From an uncultured virus (IMG/VR IMGVR_UViG_3300005364_000001) (Duplodnaviria > Heunggongvirae > Uroviricota > Caudoviricetes), in IMG/VR virus record IMGVR_UViG_3300005364_000001: a DNA stretch of 20,000 nt. The stretch is one strand, 5' to 3'. Within the stretch, counting starts at the first letter, position 1. Each line of letters begins with the position of its first letter. A program made the translations under genes and the position numbers. The notes beneath the pieces are model-generated. The model was given only the letters and a program-made list of their open reading frames with translations. It had not been told where the DNA came from and did not search any database. This document shows positions 8,036 to 13,133 of this stretch, in pieces.

Positions 8036-9166
8036 ATGGACCTGCCGACCCGAAATGACCTGTTCGACGCGGCCGCGCGCGAGGTGATCGCCCGCTCGGA
8101 GGCCCGCGCGCCGGGTAAGCGCATCGCCCCGGCGGCGATCTACACCGAGGGCTCCGACGTCAACGTGCTGCTGGCCGGCGGCTCGGCGATGGCCGAGGAG
8201 GTGCTGCGCCAGGCCGCCAAGGCCGATGCCGACAAGTGGCTCGACTCAGCCCGCGGCGAGGCGCTCGACCGGCTCGTGCTCGACCGGACCAGCCGCGAGG
8301 TGATCCGCAAGGGGGCCGCTCCCGCCTACGTGGTGGTCAGCCTCGAGCGGCACGCCGGCCCGCTCGAGGCGATCACGCTCCCCGCCGGCAAGCGCCTGCG
8401 CACGGCGGGGCAGATCGAGTTCGAGCTCCTGACGCAGGTCTCACTAGGCGCCGGCGTCACGGGGCCGCTCTCGGCGACGGCGAGGGCGGTCCTGGCCGGC
8501 ACCGCGGCCAACATCGCCCCGGGCACGCTGGTCGAGATCGTCGCCACGCCCGATCGCGAGCTCACCGTGCAGAACCCCGGGCCGGCGACGGGCGGCTACG
8601 ACCGCGAGCCGGACGCGGCCTACCGCGGCCGCGCGCGGGCCTTTTACCGCACTGCCCGGCGGGGCACGATCCCCGCGATCGAGTTCGGGGCCATCTCGAC
8701 GCCGGGGGTGGCGTTCGCGACGGTCGAGGAGGGCCTCGACGAGCTCGGCGACCCGAACGGGTTTGTGTACGTGTACGTCGGCGACGTGACGGGGCAGGCG
8801 AACGCCCCGCTCGTGTCGCGGGTCAAGCAGGAGCTACGCGAGTACCGCTGCGGCGGCATCCCGCCCGTAATCGTCGGGGCGACGCCCGAGTACATCGAGG
8901 TCCGCTACCGCCCGAGCGTGCTCGCGGGCTACGACCCCGAGACCGTGCTCGAGCAGCTGCGCTTCGCGACGGTGGCGCTCGTGAACCAGGTGGCGCCGAA
9001 CAAGCCGCTCGAGCGCTCGCTGCTCTACTCGATCGCGCGCCGGGTACCGGGCCTCATCGTGCGCGATGAGCTGATCGCCTCGCCCACGGGCGACATCTAC
9101 CCAAGCGCACCGGGGCGGGTGCTGCGCACGACGCCCGATCGGGTGCAGCTCGAGGCGAGCGCGTGA
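8036..9166 (+). CDS. Baseplate J-like (gpJ/gp47) protein
   Basis: Motifs DSARGEALDRL, LPAGKRL, ARAVLAGTAANIAPGTL, NPGPATGGYDREPDAAYRGRAR...RGT. Confidence 0.9.
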   Translation: MDLPTRNDLFDAAAREVIARSEARAPGKRIAPAAIYTEGSDVNVLLAGGSAMAEEVLRQAAKADADKWLDSARGEALDRLVLDRTSREVIRKGAAPAYVVVSLERHAGPLEAITLPAGKRLRTAGQIEFELLTQVSLGAGVTGPLSATARAVLAGTAANIAPGTLVEIVATPDRELTVQNPGPATGGYDREPDAAYRGRARAFYRTARRGTIPAIEFGAISTPGVAFATVEEGLDELGDPNGFVYVYVGDVTGQANAPLVSRVKQELREYRCGGIPPVIVGATPEYIEVRYRPSVLAGYDPETVLEQLRFATVALVNQVAPNKPLERSLLYSIARRVPGLIVRDELIASPTGDIYPSAPGRVLRTTPDRVQLEASA

Positions 9167-9438
9167 CCAAGGTCATCGACCTTGAGCGCGCGCGCAATCG
9201 GCGCCTGCCGCTGCGCCAGTGCGCGATCGTGTCGCAAGTGCCCGGCGACGCCTTTGTCGACGTGAATGAGATCTTCGACCGCGAGGGCAACCCGGTCGCG
9301 GGGCGCGTGCTGACCTTCCACTTCGATCGCGAGGACTGGAATCAAGCGGTCCCGCCCATCGTGATCAGCGGCGCGCAGCTGCGCCTTCTGGCCGACGCAC
9401 TGCTCAAGGCCGCGCTGCCCGAGCCCGAGGACCCATGA
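9163..9438 (+). CDS. Hypothetical protein (91 aa)
   Basis: GTGA and ATGA overlaps at both ends indicate translational coupling; N-terminus MTKVIDLERARNRR. Confidence 0.65.
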   Translation: MTKVIDLERARNRRLPLRQCAIVSQVPGDAFVDVNEIFDREGNPVAGRVLTFHFDREDWNQAVPPIVISGAQLRLLADALLKAALPEPEDP

Positions 9439-9656
9439 GAGCCCCGCTGCGGCAGTTCATCGACGACGTCAAGGCATGGTGCGCTGAGCATGACGCCGAT
9501 TTCGTGAGCGCCGGCCAGGTGCTCTGGCATGACGAGCCGAGCTATCAGGCCGAGATCCAGTTCGCCAACGGGCGCAGCTTCTCAGCGCTCGCGCCGACCC
9601 CGAAGGAGGCCCTCGAGGACCTGGCGCGGCTCGGTCCGATCGTAGGTGGCACATGA
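9435..9656 (+). CDS. Hypothetical protein (73 aa), weak HicB-like motif
   Basis: ATGA-coupled at both ends; GAGGA upstream; C-terminal YQAEIQF...SALAPTPKEALEDL. Confidence 0.6.
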   Translation: MRAPLRQFIDDVKAWCAEHDADFVSAGQVLWHDEPSYQAEIQFANGRSFSALAPTPKEALEDLARLGPIVGGT

Positions 9657-11203
9657 GCGACGCAGCCAAGACCCAGGGCGAGCTCGAGCGCACCTTCCGC
9701 GACGTCACGGACCCCGGCTATCACCTGCCGCTCGAGGAGGACCCGCTCAGCTGGGATCCGATCGCGGCGATGGCCACGACGGCCGCACGCGCCTCGCGCG
9801 CCGTGCACACCAACAGCCAGTCCTTCTACCTGCTGCCGCACTCGCGCCAGACCGGCGAGAGCGCCAGCGGGGCGCGCCGCGCCGAGGCCTGGCACCAGGT
9901 GCGGCGCCGCGGGCACGCGGGGCAGGCGCTCTTTGTCCCCGCGGGGAAGCGGGTCGAGTACTTCCTGCGCGACTCACGCGGGCAGCCCGCGCGGCTCGAG
10001 GCCTACGAGCTGGCCGAAGACGTCGTCTTCGCGGCCGGCGAGGTGGGCCCTGTGGCGGTGCGCGTGCGTGCGGTGCGGCCCGGCGATCAAGCCAACCTGC
10101 CGATCGCCGATCGCGCTGCGCTGGTGGCCGAGGGCGTGCGCACGGTCGCGCTCAGCGCGTACGGCGGCGTCTCGCTGACCGACACGGGTAACCCCGACGT
10201 CTTCACGGCGGCGGATGTGGGACGCTACCTGCGCCTTCAGGGCGAGGCGCCGCGGCGGGTGAAGGCCTACTCGCAGGACGCGCTCGGGCGGGGCCAGGTC
10301 GAGCTCGAGGGCGACTCGATCACCGGCACGGGGCCGGCGGTGCTGCTCGAGTGGAGCGAGCTCGGCGTCGAGCTCGAGCAGCTCGAGGCCTTCAGCGGCG
10401 GCCGGCACGCGATGCTCGACCAGATCGGGCTCGAGCGCGACATGCCGCGGGGCCCGGGCGAGGGCGACGAGGACTTCGCGTATCGGATCTCGAGCCTGCC
10501 CGACGTGATCACGCCGGCGGCGCTCGAGCGGATCTGCGCGCGCATCCTGAGCCCGCTCGGGATCTCGTACGCGCTGCACGAGGTGCGCGACCCGGAGCTG
10601 CGGGGCTTCGTGCTCGACCTGACCCCGCTCGACGCCGGCGGCATGTGCTCAGACAGCTCCTGGGCGGGTGGGGTGCTGCTCAGCGATAGCGCGAGCAAGC
10701 GCCTGTTCGTGGTCTGCATCGAGCGCGCGATCAACGTCGGCTACGAGGGCGGCCTCGCGTTCGACTCGATGAGCTCAGGGGTCAACGCCTACGACGTCGG
10801 CTCGAGCTCGGGCGACGGGCGGCCGACGGGCTACCTCAACGCGCTGCGCGCGCTGCTGGTCGACCTCAACGCGGCGCGGGGCGGTGGCACCGCGTTCCGG
10901 GTGGTCGAGCGCACCGCCGTCGAGCCCTACGGGCTGCACGCGGTCACGCTCGAGGTGGGGATAGCTGCCGGTACGCCCGAGTACCTGGCGGCCCGGGACG
11001 AGGCGCTGGCGGCGCTGGTGCAGCAGCTCAGGCCTGGCGAGCGCACCAGCGAGGTCGAGCTCGCCGAGGCGATCGCCGGCCAGCTGCTCATGCGGGGCCT
11101 CGACGCGACCGGCGTAACCGTGCTCGTCACCGGGGGCGACCTGGTGCCCGGCCCGCTCGAGGTGCTCAACATCGCGCCCCTGGGCGGCGGCGGTGGCAGC
11201 TAA
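9653..11203 (+). CDS. Second J-like / wedge (gpI-like) multidomain baseplate protein
   Basis: N-terminal PAGKRV..YEL..GPVAVRVRAVRPGDQANLP and C-terminal ALVQQLRPGE..GGDLVPGP align by eye with the J protein at 8036; central LDQIGLERDMPRGPGEGDEDFAYRI wedge motif. Confidence 0.7.
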   Translation: MSDAAKTQGELERTFRDVTDPGYHLPLEEDPLSWDPIAAMATTAARASRAVHTNSQSFYLLPHSRQTGESASGARRAEAWHQVRRRGHAGQALFVPAGKRVEYFLRDSRGQPARLEAYELAEDVVFAAGEVGPVAVRVRAVRPGDQANLPIADRAALVAEGVRTVALSAYGGVSLTDTGNPDVFTAADVGRYLRLQGEAPRRVKAYSQDALGRGQVELEGDSITGTGPAVLLEWSELGVELEQLEAFSGGRHAMLDQIGLERDMPRGPGEGDEDFAYRISSLPDVITPAALERICARILSPLGISYALHEVRDPELRGFVLDLTPLDAGGMCSDSSWAGGVLLSDSASKRLFVVCIERAINVGYEGGLAFDSMSSGVNAYDVGSSSGDGRPTGYLNALRALLVDLNAARGGGTAFRVVERTAVEPYGLHAVTLEVGIAAGTPEYLAARDEALAALVQQLRPGERTSEVELAEAIAGQLLMRGLDATGVTVLVTGGDLVPGPLEVLNIAPLGGGGGS

Positions 11204-11409
11204 GGGCAGGGGGGGCCTTCCCTGAGAACACGGGCTCTTAGGGGGATCCCCACCTGGTAGATCGCGCCCCCGGGGCATGTCAGCAGGTGTCCGTCGCCGG
11301 ATTCGCCTGTGACTCCGTGTGCGACGGGGTAGGTACGACTCCCGTCAGGGCGCAAGGACTTGCGCAGATAGTGCTGTCTGTCTTACAGACGGATCACATC
11401 AAGCAGCAG

Positions 11410-11501
11410 ACAAGCAACAAATAGCACGAAGCCCCAGCATCGCGGTCAAAGGTCCTGCAAGACCTACGCGACACAAGGGCTTCGGATCGAGCACCAATGT
11501 T
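11410..11501 (-). ncRNA. Predicted counter-transcribed antisense RNA (ctRNA) upstream of the rep gene; ends approximate
   Basis: Bulged hairpin 11427-11484 (CGAAGCCC/GGGCTTCG, TCGCG/CGCGA, AGGTC/GACCT, 6-nt loop) followed on the minus strand by U-rich GTGCTATTTGTTGCTT; correctly spaced promoter just upstream. Confidence 0.55.
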
Positions 11502-11613
11502 CGAGGAATCTAACGCGTTTCTGCGCCGCAAGCAAGCATGCGGCGCAGAAAGCGGTAACGTACGGATCTCATTTAGGTATACGGCGAAACGGCAAGGCGG
11601 TGTGCCTTGTTGA
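11497..11613 (+). CDS. Putative rep leader peptide (38 aa, MFEESNAFLRRKQACGAESGNVRISFRYTAKRQGGVPC)
   Basis: Open frame from ATG 11497 to TGA 11611-11613, which overlaps TTG 11610 of the rep frame (TTGA); too short for the supplied ORF track; RBS weak. Confidence 0.45.
   Translation: MFEESNAFLRRKQACGAESGNVRISFRYTAKRQGGVPC
11507..11535 (-). promoter_or_regulatory. Sigma70-type promoter for the antisense RNA
   Basis: -35 TTGCTT (11535-11530), 17-bp spacer, -10 TAGATT (11512-11507). Confidence 0.6.
11518..11551. repeat. Perfect 13-bp inverted repeat
   Basis: TTTCTGCGCCGCA-agcaagca-TGCGGCGCAGAAA. Confidence 0.95.
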
Positions 11614-11618
11614 GATCC
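11564..11618 (+). promoter_or_regulatory. Stem-loop sequestering the rep ribosome-binding site and start codon
   Basis: GGATCTCA (11564-11571) pairs with TGAGATCC (11611-11618); inner CAAGGC/GCCTTG pairs the SD-like AAGGCGG with the TTG at 11607. Confidence 0.55.
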
Positions 11619-12986
11619 AGCTGTCCACGGTCGGACAACGACAACGCCGCCCCGCCGCCGGCGTTCGACGCGAAAGAGCTGCGCGCGGCCCGCGCCGCCT
11701 GGCGCCTGAAGGCTCGCCAGCGGCGCCTGTCACCGAGGGCGAGGCTGCTCGTCGACTACCTCGCGACGCTGAAGAGCTTCCCCCACGCATTCTTTCGCGT
11801 GAGCAAGCTGGCTGAGGAGCTCTGCTGCTCGTCGGCGCAGGCGAGGCGCACGGTGCGCGAGGTCGAGCGTGCGGGCCTTCTGGCGCATGCCCCGTACTAC
11901 GGCTCGATCGGCGAGCAGCGGGCCAACGACTACCTAGCGTGCGACGGCGAGCGCTGGTGCTGGCGGCTGCTCGGCGGCGACGAGCTCGGGCGCGCCGAGG
12001 GCCGCCTGCTCGTGAGCTCGCTGCTGAGCGCGACCTGGCGCTGGCGCGATGAGGATCTGGCCACGTCGCCCGCCGTGCTCGAGGCGCTGCTGCGCGCGAC
12101 TGGCGCCTGGGGACTCGCGGCTCGTAAGTGCAAGCCCCCCCTTGCAGATATGACCCCCCCCCCTTGCATGGATGCCACCCATAGTCTTAACGCTGAGTCT
12201 GCGGACGGGGAGGCAGATCAGCAGCAGCAAGCAGAGCCGCCGCCTGTGGATAACCCACCGAGTGACGAGAGCGACGAGCCGGACCTCGACGCCGACGACC
12301 GCGACCTCAAGCCCGACAACCCCGAGATGGAGCTCGACGAGGCGCAGCTCCAGGAGCAGCTCGACCGACTGGCGGCCCAGCTCGAGCTCGAGGACGCCGA
12401 GGTTGCGCAGCCCGACCTCACGCCCGACACTGCGGCCGCACCCTTCGGCGCGCGGGCATCGTCACCCGCTGCGGGCGACGCGAGGTTCGGGTCTCGCGCA
12501 GCTCCTGCGCCGAGGGGGGCTTCTCGGGGCCCGGGCCCGAGCAAGGTCTTCGCGCTGCCGCTCGAGCTGCGCGCTAGGCTGGTGGGGCGCTTTGACGAGA
12601 CCCGGGTGCGGGCTCTCGAGCGGGCGCTCGGGCAGGCCAAGCGATCGCCCGAGGTGATGATCGCCGCCGCGCACATGCTGCTCGAGCGCAACGCGCTCAC
12701 CCCCGCGAGCTACGTGCACAGCTTGTTCGACGACGCGGCCGAGCAGCTCGAGCGGGCGCTGCACGAGCCGCCGCCAGCGAATGCCCCTACGAGCGGCCAG
12801 GCGCCGCCCAGGGCGCGCGCGGCACCGAAGCCGCCTGACCCCTTGCTCATGCAGGTCCAGACCGCCCGTGAGCGCCTCGAGGCGCTGCCCAGGCACGATC
12901 CCCGACGGCCCCAGCACGAGCAGCGGCTCAAGGAGCTGCTCGACCAGGTGGCAGCCCGCGACCTTGGGCGGACGGCGGCCTCGTGA
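11607..12986 (+). CDS. Winged-HTH replication initiator-like protein (phage/plasmid Rep; start TTG 11607 or 11610)
   Basis: N-terminal LSPRARLLVDYL...FFRVSKLAEELCCSSAQARRTVREVERAGLL...GEQRANDY resembles HTH_36-type initiators; internal repeats and DnaA box; acidic/Pro-rich linker; helical C-terminal domain; in-frame stop at 11574 limits the start. Confidence 0.7.
   Translation: MLRSSCPRSDNDNAAPPPAFDAKELRAARAAWRLKARQRRLSPRARLLVDYLATLKSFPHAFFRVSKLAEELCCSSAQARRTVREVERAGLLAHAPYYGSIGEQRANDYLACDGERWCWRLLGGDELGRAEGRLLVSSLLSATWRWRDEDLATSPAVLEALLRATGAWGLAARKCKPPLADMTPPPCMDATHSLNAESADGEADQQQQAEPPPVDNPPSDESDEPDLDADDRDLKPDNPEMELDEAQLQEQLDRLAAQLELEDAEVAQPDLTPDTAAAPFGARASSPAAGDARFGSRAAPAPRGASRGPGPSKVFALPLELRARLVGRFDETRVRALERALGQAKRSPEVMIAAAHMLLERNALTPASYVHSLFDDAAEQLERALHEPPPANAPTSGQAPPRARAAPKPPDPLLMQVQTARERLEALPRHDPRRPQHEQRLKELLDQVAARDLGRTAAS
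12129..12253. other. Putative replication origin inside the rep gene: 22-bp-period iteron-like units and a DnaA box
   Basis: TGCAAGCCCCCCCTTGCAGATA / TGACCCCCCCCCCTTGCATGGA / TGCCACCC..., then relatively AT-rich ATAGTCTTAAC, and TGTGGATAA (reverse complement TTATCCACA) at 12245-12253. Confidence 0.6.
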
Positions 12987-12999
12987 GAGCATCGGCCCC

Positions 13000-13113
13000 G
13001 AGAGCGCCCTCGCTGCCGGGGCGAGATCCTCACGTCCCCAAAACGTTGCGGCGCGATCGAGGGGCCTCCCCCGGTCGCGCCCTGAGAATCTCGGCAAGGG
13101 ACAGGGCGCTCTC
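13000..13113. other. Branched secondary-structure element between rep and the first fibre-like gene
   Basis: GAGAGCGCCCT/AGGGCGCTCTC (11 bp perfect), CGAGATCCTCA/TGAGAATCTCG (10 of 11), GGCGCGATCG/CGGTCGCGCC (one wobble), GGGG/CCCC tip. Confidence 0.7.
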
Positions 13114-13133
13114 ACACGCAAGGGAGATCCAAG

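Follow-up and report, generated by a model that had tools for sequence, protein, structure and literature searches.

A predicted antisense RNA over the leader of an initiator-like gene in an uncultured soil phage, with counterparts at related loci

The locus and the phage that carries it

The stretch of DNA analysed here, hereafter the window, comprises 20,000 nt and forms the final 20 kb of the 64,189-bp record of an uncultured soil phage (G000), whose genome has 70% GC and, as indicated by an 80-bp terminal repeat, is circular. The window genes are those of the tail and baseplate, and the genes for terminase, portal, capsid and ParA lie elsewhere in the genome. Between two tail genes there is a 400-nt gap of ~56% GC, followed by a 459-aa ORF that we call the rep-like gene; the replication-like module as a whole (11204-13133) is flanked by tail genes and is 34 kb away from parA. 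The baseplate genes, too, are interrupted, by two small ORFs (9163-9656). The features of the module are collected in Table 1.

Table 1. Features of the gap, the leader and the rep-like gene (window coordinates)
Feature	Positions	Strand	Remarks
Candidate promoter of leader/rep mRNA	11360-11389	+	TTGCGC-18-TACAGA; start ~11396
Predicted antisense RNA, ~82-88 nt	11413-11500	-	16-nt unpaired 5' tail, long hairpin, U-rich 3' end; ends predicted
Three-segment bulged hairpin	11427-11484	-	Loop 11455-11460; likely terminator, possible contact loop
Weak mRNA hairpin over leader AUG	11487-11504	+	-6.4 kcal/mol
Leader ORF, 38 codons	11497-11613	+	TGA overlaps TTG at 11610 (TTGA)
Antisense promoter-like site	11507-11535	-	-35 TTGCTT 11535-11530, 17-nt spacer, -10 TAGATT 11512-11507
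Inverted repeat, 16-17 bp	11514-11555		Overlaps antisense -35 and spacer; -29 kcal/mol as RNA
mRNA hairpin over rep starts	11564-11618	+	-27.7 kcal/mol; holds 11607 and 11610 and part of the SD
Rep-like gene, 459 aa	11607-12986	+	N-terminal winged HTH (HTH_36); sole HTH_36 match in the genome
Two 22-nt direct repeats	12135-12178		Within rep-like gene; C-runs, GC dip; possible origin boxes

The candidate start codons of the rep-like gene are at 11607 and 11610 (TTG). Pfam searches of its product returned only HTH_36 and a weak Fe_dep_repress match, with no match to RepA_N, and a sequence search of solved structures gave no match to the protein. The N-terminal domain is predicted to be a winged HTH (mean pLDDT 87), and a fold search placed the staphylococcal initiator 4pql (Z 8.0, rmsd 2.9, 79 aligned) in a tie with PerR, Fur and LexA; look-alikes at the cluster level include RP-C and DnaD_N. 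The protein also contains a low-complexity linker and internal direct repeats. It has eight relatives at E<=0.001 among 1.84 billion representatives and no match at E<=1 in 72,556 plasmids; the full protein has no match in curated phage records, and identity with the RepA/RepZ-family initiators of IncFII and I-complex plasmids was not found. In the literature covered, with subscription journals and supplements outside its scope, we found nothing on an HTH_36 rep-like family. A search of the genome found no initiator other than the rep-like gene. The 459-aa ORF is therefore best described as the genome's leading initiator candidate, and a Rep function is probable, with a domain that is a generic winged HTH.

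The parA gene is flanked on both sides by CCCCGCGGGG palindromes, with 14 matches against 4.8 expected. These parS-like repeats occupy L004:1408-1513 and 2572-2846 (G000 C1 ~21.4-22.85 kb) at a spacing of ~24 and ~48 bp, and some fall within a small ORF after parA. The genome search returned no tyrosine recombinase, no serine recombinase/resolvase and no DnaB, and no integrase was found. The element thus shows what defines a phage-plasmid, namely complete virion genes and a partition system, with integrase absent in the search. On the basis of the virion genes, parA, the parS-like repeats and the lack of any recombinase in that search, the element is most likely a phage kept as a plasmid in its prophage state. 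Searches with the capsid, ParA and baseplate proteins for a host yielded only 26-34% identities in mixed taxa; a myxobacterial host was a guess from GC content that nothing here supports.

Promoter-like site, hairpin and leader in the window and at related loci

An earlier note on this DNA had proposed that a minus-strand TTGCTT-17-TAGATT promoter starts, near 11500, a cis-antisense RNA that would cover the leader ATG (11497), fold into a three-segment bulged hairpin with a 6-nt loop and end in a U-rich run, and that was not recognised as a named Rfam family and showed no clear YUNR in its loop. All of these sequence details were recovered. The boxes are present at 11535-11507, and counting +7 from the -10 TAGATT gives a predicted minus-strand start at 11500, with the leader ATG at +2 to +4 and, in the predicted fold, the 16-nt unpaired 5' tail covering the leader AUG. 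The hairpin (11484-11427) consists of 9 bp, a 1x1 loop, 8 bp, a 1x5 loop and 5-6 bp, closed by the 6-nt loop UUGCAG, or by the 4-nt loop UGCA if the closing U-G pair is formed. The stem is followed by UGCUAUUUGUUGCUUG, with 5 U among the first 8 nt, and the RNA is therefore predicted to be 82-88 nt long. A covariance-model search of the window gave 0 Rfam matches at gathering score, and 11150-11700 gave just two unrelated chance hits (E 2.5 and 8.8). The sense loop, CUGCAA, is without a YUNR U-turn; on the antisense strand, CUUG overlaps the closing pair of the loop.

By folding energy the predicted hairpin is well beyond chance (-34.6 kcal/mol and z -5.4 alone; z -3.1 to -3.4 with flanks). 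The minus-strand form has 23 bp, 4 of them G-U, at -34.6 kcal/mol, and the plus-strand form 19 bp, with 0 G-U, at -26.2 kcal/mol. Of the 12 sigma70 consensus positions the promoter-like site matches only 7, below the 9 that the promoter scanner needs, and no promoter was called; no terminator was called at the site either. The pattern TTG-N3-N17-TA-N3-T has two matches in the whole 64-kb genome (both strands), of which this site is one, and it arises with P=0.073 in 1000 shuffles of the local 300 nt, so the box taken by itself is no more than suggestive. The inverted repeat over the -35 and spacer may serve as an operator at which Rep or some other protein adjusts production of the RNA, or else form an mRNA hairpin; no such repeat was noticed at the equivalent place in the relatives. 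The only other match to the box pattern in the genome lies at C1:15386 (+), and ~60 nt after it L003:15477-15521 (G000 C1, +) is the best match in the genome to the model built from the relatives' hairpins that is described below (E 0.009); the two possibly form a second small promoter-to-terminator unit.

Relatives were sought in several ways. Single-protein scans of viral contigs either came back empty or recovered no more than a near-identical copy. Searching with a degenerate HTH-domain pattern brought up 75 loci, 2 of them viral, 46 from metagenomes and 27 from genomes; five of these carry the HTH domain, namely two copies of this genome and three distinct relatives, with none among the 27 loci of named genomes. 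These three relatives, L006, L035 and L043, were found via the protein alone. A fourth relative, L082, was the one new locus of the two returned by a hairpin-plus-promoter (-10 box) pattern, and it was partly selected on TATCAGC; its first ORF is weakly related (E 1e-4 in a local search) and gave no genome-wide match. A looser hairpin/promoter pattern returned 21 loci, and the 19 without an HTH domain were dropped. A ParA scan gave 37 loci, one of them L006; it also gave L117 (E 7e-5), in which an HTH gene without a leader overlaps the parA operon, and a weak match at L133 (E 0.007). In L082:1491-3045 (minus strand), the antisense unit precedes the diverged HTH ORF, after which comes a second HTH ORF with the look of a further initiator candidate. 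The diverged ORF presumably carries a C-terminal HNH-like motif.

The window and the four relatives make up the five loci compared below; the relatives are kin and the motif was defined after the sequences had been seen, so the shuffle P values given here are not to be multiplied as independent. The antisense strand of all five loci carries TTG-N3-17-TA-N3-T just within the first ORF, pointing away from rep (TTGCTT/TAGATT, TTGCGC/TAGCTT, TTGCGC/TAGTTT, TTGCGC/TAGCGT and TTGTCG/TACGTT), and the four relatives additionally have TG one base before the -10. The pattern matches once in each of the four relative loci (1.9-6.5 kb), with a shuffle P per 300 nt of 0.008 in L006, 0.009 in L082, 0.007 in L043 and 0.035 in L035. 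On the coding strand, the -35 reads CAA at all five loci (in nine genes of the window, CAA accounts for 6% of Gln codons), and at four of them the -10 requires the rare codons TCT, GCT or ACT (2-3%). In L035 a TAA stop falls within the -10 box in the matching frame, and the protein therefore cannot explain the box there. The same footprint, x-I-S-x5-Q, appears in the protein sequences P0002, P0006, P0007 and P0008; P0013 is L006's own protein. As far as sequence comparison can speak, the conservation of the box together with the rare codons and this footprint is the strongest evidence in our analysis.

A hairpin follows the box at all five loci (antisense z -3.9 to -5.6). Box and hairpin thus recur in the same orientation at 4/4 related loci, and this conservation lends good support to the note's proposal of an antisense RNA with its own promoter. 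Pair comparisons were made from single-sequence folds because the hairpin of the window, which is longer, was misregistered in the MAFFT alignments. The stems share a run near the base (G-C, C-G, C-G, (C-G), U-G), in which the conserved U-G pair is specific to the antisense strand and becomes an A-C mismatch on the sense strand, and at three positions above it both partners differ between L006/L082 and L043/L035, possibly through few events. A U-rich tail is found on the antisense strand at four loci (L043 is without it) and on the sense strand at none of the five, and the fold advantage of the antisense strand over shuffles is 1.3-1.7 SD at four loci and close to none in L006. As to covariation, which the note had named as a check, the RNAalifold terms are unfavourable (+0.92, +0.19), on alignments that misregister some rows. 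A covariance model built from the hairpins of the four relatives finds the window hairpin in the right place and strand at E=4.7 (rank 72 of 75); at this E value the window hairpin is equivalent in position, and sequence homology is not proven. The sense loops contain UUGGCG in L006 and L082 and CUGA in L035, and they read CUGCAC in L043 and CUGCAA in the window, and a YUNR U-turn is present in three of the four relatives, the loops of L043 and the window being without one.

The first start codon falls at +2 to +13 of the predicted RNA at all five loci. The ORF to which it belongs differs. A leader ORF overlapping the rep start is present in the window and in L035, where 31 codons end over the rep GTG (the gene-called start of P0014 agrees), and it is absent from L006, L043 and L082. 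The window leader runs over the promoter (EESNAFLRRKQ) in the same frame as the N-terminus of the L006 Rep (AEAISHDRRAQ), and because of this shared frame it looks like a split-off Rep N-terminus. Across the leader, contigs from three DNA runs match the window and contain the leader/rep frame break, so the break is not peculiar to one assembly, although the source itself may be among these runs or all of them may come from a single campaign.

Proposed control of the rep-like gene and alternative explanations

Given the candidate sense promoter upstream of the hairpin, the predicted antisense RNA would lie wholly opposite the mRNA leader; a TT(G/C)-18/19-TA site also lies 34-49 nt before the hairpin in 3/4 relatives. 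The leader of this mRNA is predicted to be structured throughout, with four hairpins, the last of which holds both candidate rep starts. The SD of rep (AAGGCGG, 11595-11601) is partly inside that last hairpin, and the leader SD is weak. Blocking 11415-11500 in silico left the unpaired probabilities of SD and start unchanged (0.43 and 0.47) in what is an equilibrium model only. This stability of hairpin 11564-11618 argues against refolding of the pSK41 type. When only the 5' arm of this hairpin was forced open, in a test that ignores a terminating ribosome, the rep start stayed unfree and re-paired downstream. No sense terminator before the rep start was called by the scanner, and the sense hairpins are without U runs after them; attenuation of the pT181/pIP501 type was therefore set aside, a sense-strand hairpin with a U run just before the rep start being what it requires. 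An activating pseudoknot of the I-complex type was searched for in silico and not found: no run of at least 6 pairs joins the loop 11455-11460 to 11500-11660, and one 6-bp run to that region uses the upper stem and one loop base. With attenuation, pseudoknot and refolding not found, action through the leader ORF remains.

Since box and hairpin recur at four related loci, a small antisense RNA is very probably made. What it does is less certain, and we consider it rather likely that this 82-88-nt cis-antisense RNA limits the initiator by blocking translation initiation and thereby sets copy number. The rep start would be locked in the hairpin 11564-11618 and be reached only by ribosomes that finish the 38-codon leader and reinitiate at the TTGA overlap. 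Pairing of the antisense RNA with the mRNA leader would begin at the RNA's free 5' tail, possibly with the loop as a second point of contact, and would cover the leader SD and AUG; leader translation would then stop and Rep would be shut off, so that limited Rep synthesis would set the copy number of the likely plasmid prophage. In L006, L043 and L082, which are without the leader ORF, the RNA would lie directly over the first HTH gene's start codon, and the position of the predicted 5' end over the first start codon at every locus points to a block of translation initiation. Control of a rep-like gene fits the context of parA, parS-like repeats and a genome in which no integrase was found. 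The note's claim that Rep is controlled is therefore in keeping with the context, but the kissing of the CopA/Inc type that it envisaged is unsupported for the window copy, which has neither a U-turn nor a loop-to-SD pseudoknot.

It is unlikely that the antisense promoter acts by transcriptional interference with the convergent rep promoter (~120 bp) or by decay of the mRNA duplex, with the hairpin as terminator only. Such action would suit the convergent sense promoter candidates 34-49 nt before the hairpin at 4/5 loci and the wide variation of upper stems and loops between loci, the window lacking a U-turn, but it is opposed by the constant placing of the predicted 5' end over the first start codon and by the UUGGCG loops (2 loci) and coupled leader ORFs (2 loci), which are marks of translational RNA-RNA control. 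Translation might also be blocked while the target is a transcription regulator or another HTH protein, as with the immunity or anti-immunity RNAs of temperate phages. We regard this as quite improbable: the length of the HTH_36 protein, its low-complexity linker and internal direct repeats, the divergent parA in 3/4 relatives, the RP-C and DnaD_N look-alike clusters and a search of G000 that found no other initiator speak for an initiator, against a fold search that cannot separate the domain from PerR, Fur, LexA and MarR, one source that labels a relative a GntR-family regulator, and the tyrosine recombinases of two relatives, G001 (C1:37143-37640) and G002 (C1:44689-45222), of which none was found in G000.

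Two further explanations concern the transcript itself. In L006, L035 and L082 the box points to parA, 310-415 nt away, and in L043 the U tail is missing and minus-strand ORFs lie downstream, as would be expected if the box drove a longer divergent transcript, in the relatives towards parA, and the hairpin were a 5' structure or leaky terminator. The window box faces the non-coding strand of a tail gene, with box and hairpin kept, and L035 has a separate TTGACT-17-TATTGG nearer parA, which makes a long transcript very unlikely in our judgement. That no antisense transcript exists at all, with hairpins that work within the mRNA or serve as DNA operators and a box that arises by chance or as a by-product of the protein, is scarcely credible: the 7/12 match, the local chance probability, the structured mRNA leader and the strong inverted repeat over the -35 would agree with it, but the exact 17-nt spacing and the rare codons recur at 5/5 loci, in one of which the frame is closed by a stop, and the conserved U-G pair and the U tail are found on the antisense strand only.

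Relation to known systems and the wider family

In plasmid R1, CopA binds just upstream of tap. The predicted window RNA, unlike CopA, overlaps the leader AUG itself. The window otherwise resembles the CopA/tap/repA system of R1 (IncFII) as described in the available part of PMC4393325, with a small cis-antisense RNA whose predicted effect is exerted by way of leader translation, with coupling between a leader ORF and rep, and with a rep ribosome site held in a hairpin. Of the R1-type features, a counter-transcript promoter, an overlapping leader ORF and a sequestered rep site are all predicted in the window; it differs from R1 in having no Rfam match, a different Rep family and a target loop without a YUNR U-turn.

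In shape, the predicted RNA is closer to RNAII of pMV158/pLS1, as outlined in parts of PMC4485353 and PMC5703833, which has an unpaired 5' tail of 16-17 nt, one hairpin, a loop of ~6 nt and a U-rich end, and whose promoter lies inside the 5' end of a coding sequence; the unpaired tail, single hairpin and U-rich end are all found in the predicted fold of the window RNA. According to the same accounts, the tail of pMV158 RNAII blocks initiation and kissing is unneeded (PMC4485353; PMC5703833). That RNA is of 48 nt and belongs to a rolling-circle Rep_2 system with CopG (PMC4485353; PMC5703833, in the parts available), whereas the window RNA is of ~85 nt, with a three-segment hairpin and a leader ORF as its first target.

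A single bulged stem-loop with a coupled leader peptide is likewise described for the Inc RNA/RNAI of the I-complex plasmids (ColIb-P9, IncB/O, IncK) in the portion of PMC10724649 available to us. The title of the paper on ColIb-P9 Inc RNA, as cited in the accessible parts of PMC9977716 and PMC3753616, names the motif UUGGCG, and this target loop of I-complex Inc RNA occurs in L006 and L082 only. The window, unlike the I-complex, has the loop CUGCAA, no Rfam match, an unrelated Rep and no loop-to-SD pseudoknot in our search. The ~83-nt RNAI of pSK41, which pairs ~100 nt upstream of the rep start and represses translation, is similar in size and placing, and the initiators of pSK41 and pPR9, with an N-terminal HTH and origin boxes inside the gene, resemble the rep-like gene with its HTH and its possible origin boxes; in pPR9 an HTH_36 domain (pfam13730) heads a working initiator (PMC5703833, in part). 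RNAI of pSK41 induces an inhibitory hairpin (PMC5703833, same part), whereas the window hairpin is predicted with or without the RNA. The parABS mycobacteriophages Miko and Jeeves are temperate and are kept as plasmids by an HTH RepA and par, not by an integrase; there is no sequence match to them, and the available excerpt of PMC7157519 describes no antisense control of repA. The window system as predicted thus follows the logic of R1 CopA/tap in the shape of pMV158 RNAII, and it is a member of none of the systems compared.

Antisense copy control is textbook knowledge for plasmids, and the mechanism is therefore no surprise. What is new is a family of HTH_36 initiator-like proteins without a match in curated plasmid or phage records; if the module replicates, its host group would have a compact replicon that brings its own copy-number dial. 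Our more far-reaching suggestion is tentative: the loci may represent an undescribed family of high-GC phage-plasmid replicons in which the antisense promoter is fixed in the old 5' end of rep and its target changes. Three members would block the first start codon directly. In the other two, a rep-coupled leader ORF would have been split away separately, through a frame break downstream of the former N-terminus in the window and through a stop plus a new frame in L035; the enterobacterial UUGGCG kissing loop would have been reached by two members. If this is true, the family offers a natural series from direct start-codon blocking to leader-peptide coupling and shows how tap-type leader control arises from simple occlusion.

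The phages of the family are of 61-66 kb and high GC, and their capsids do not match each other; the G000 capsid protein, in particular, has no match in G001 or G002. The tyrosine recombinase of G001 and G002 would be an integrase or a dimer resolvase. In L006, L035 and L082 the rep homologue is divergent from parA and a small ORF, and this back-to-back arrangement of rep and parA in three relatives is unlike the 34-kb separation in the present genome. Upstream of parA, L035:1810-1925 and L006:3690-3750 carry short repeats (GCTATC/TAGC and GTACAC types) that resemble centromere-and-promoter regions. The predicted antisense RNA of L035 (L035:1996-2100) is longer, at ~130 nt, and has two extra hairpins, one of them with a UUUGGA loop.
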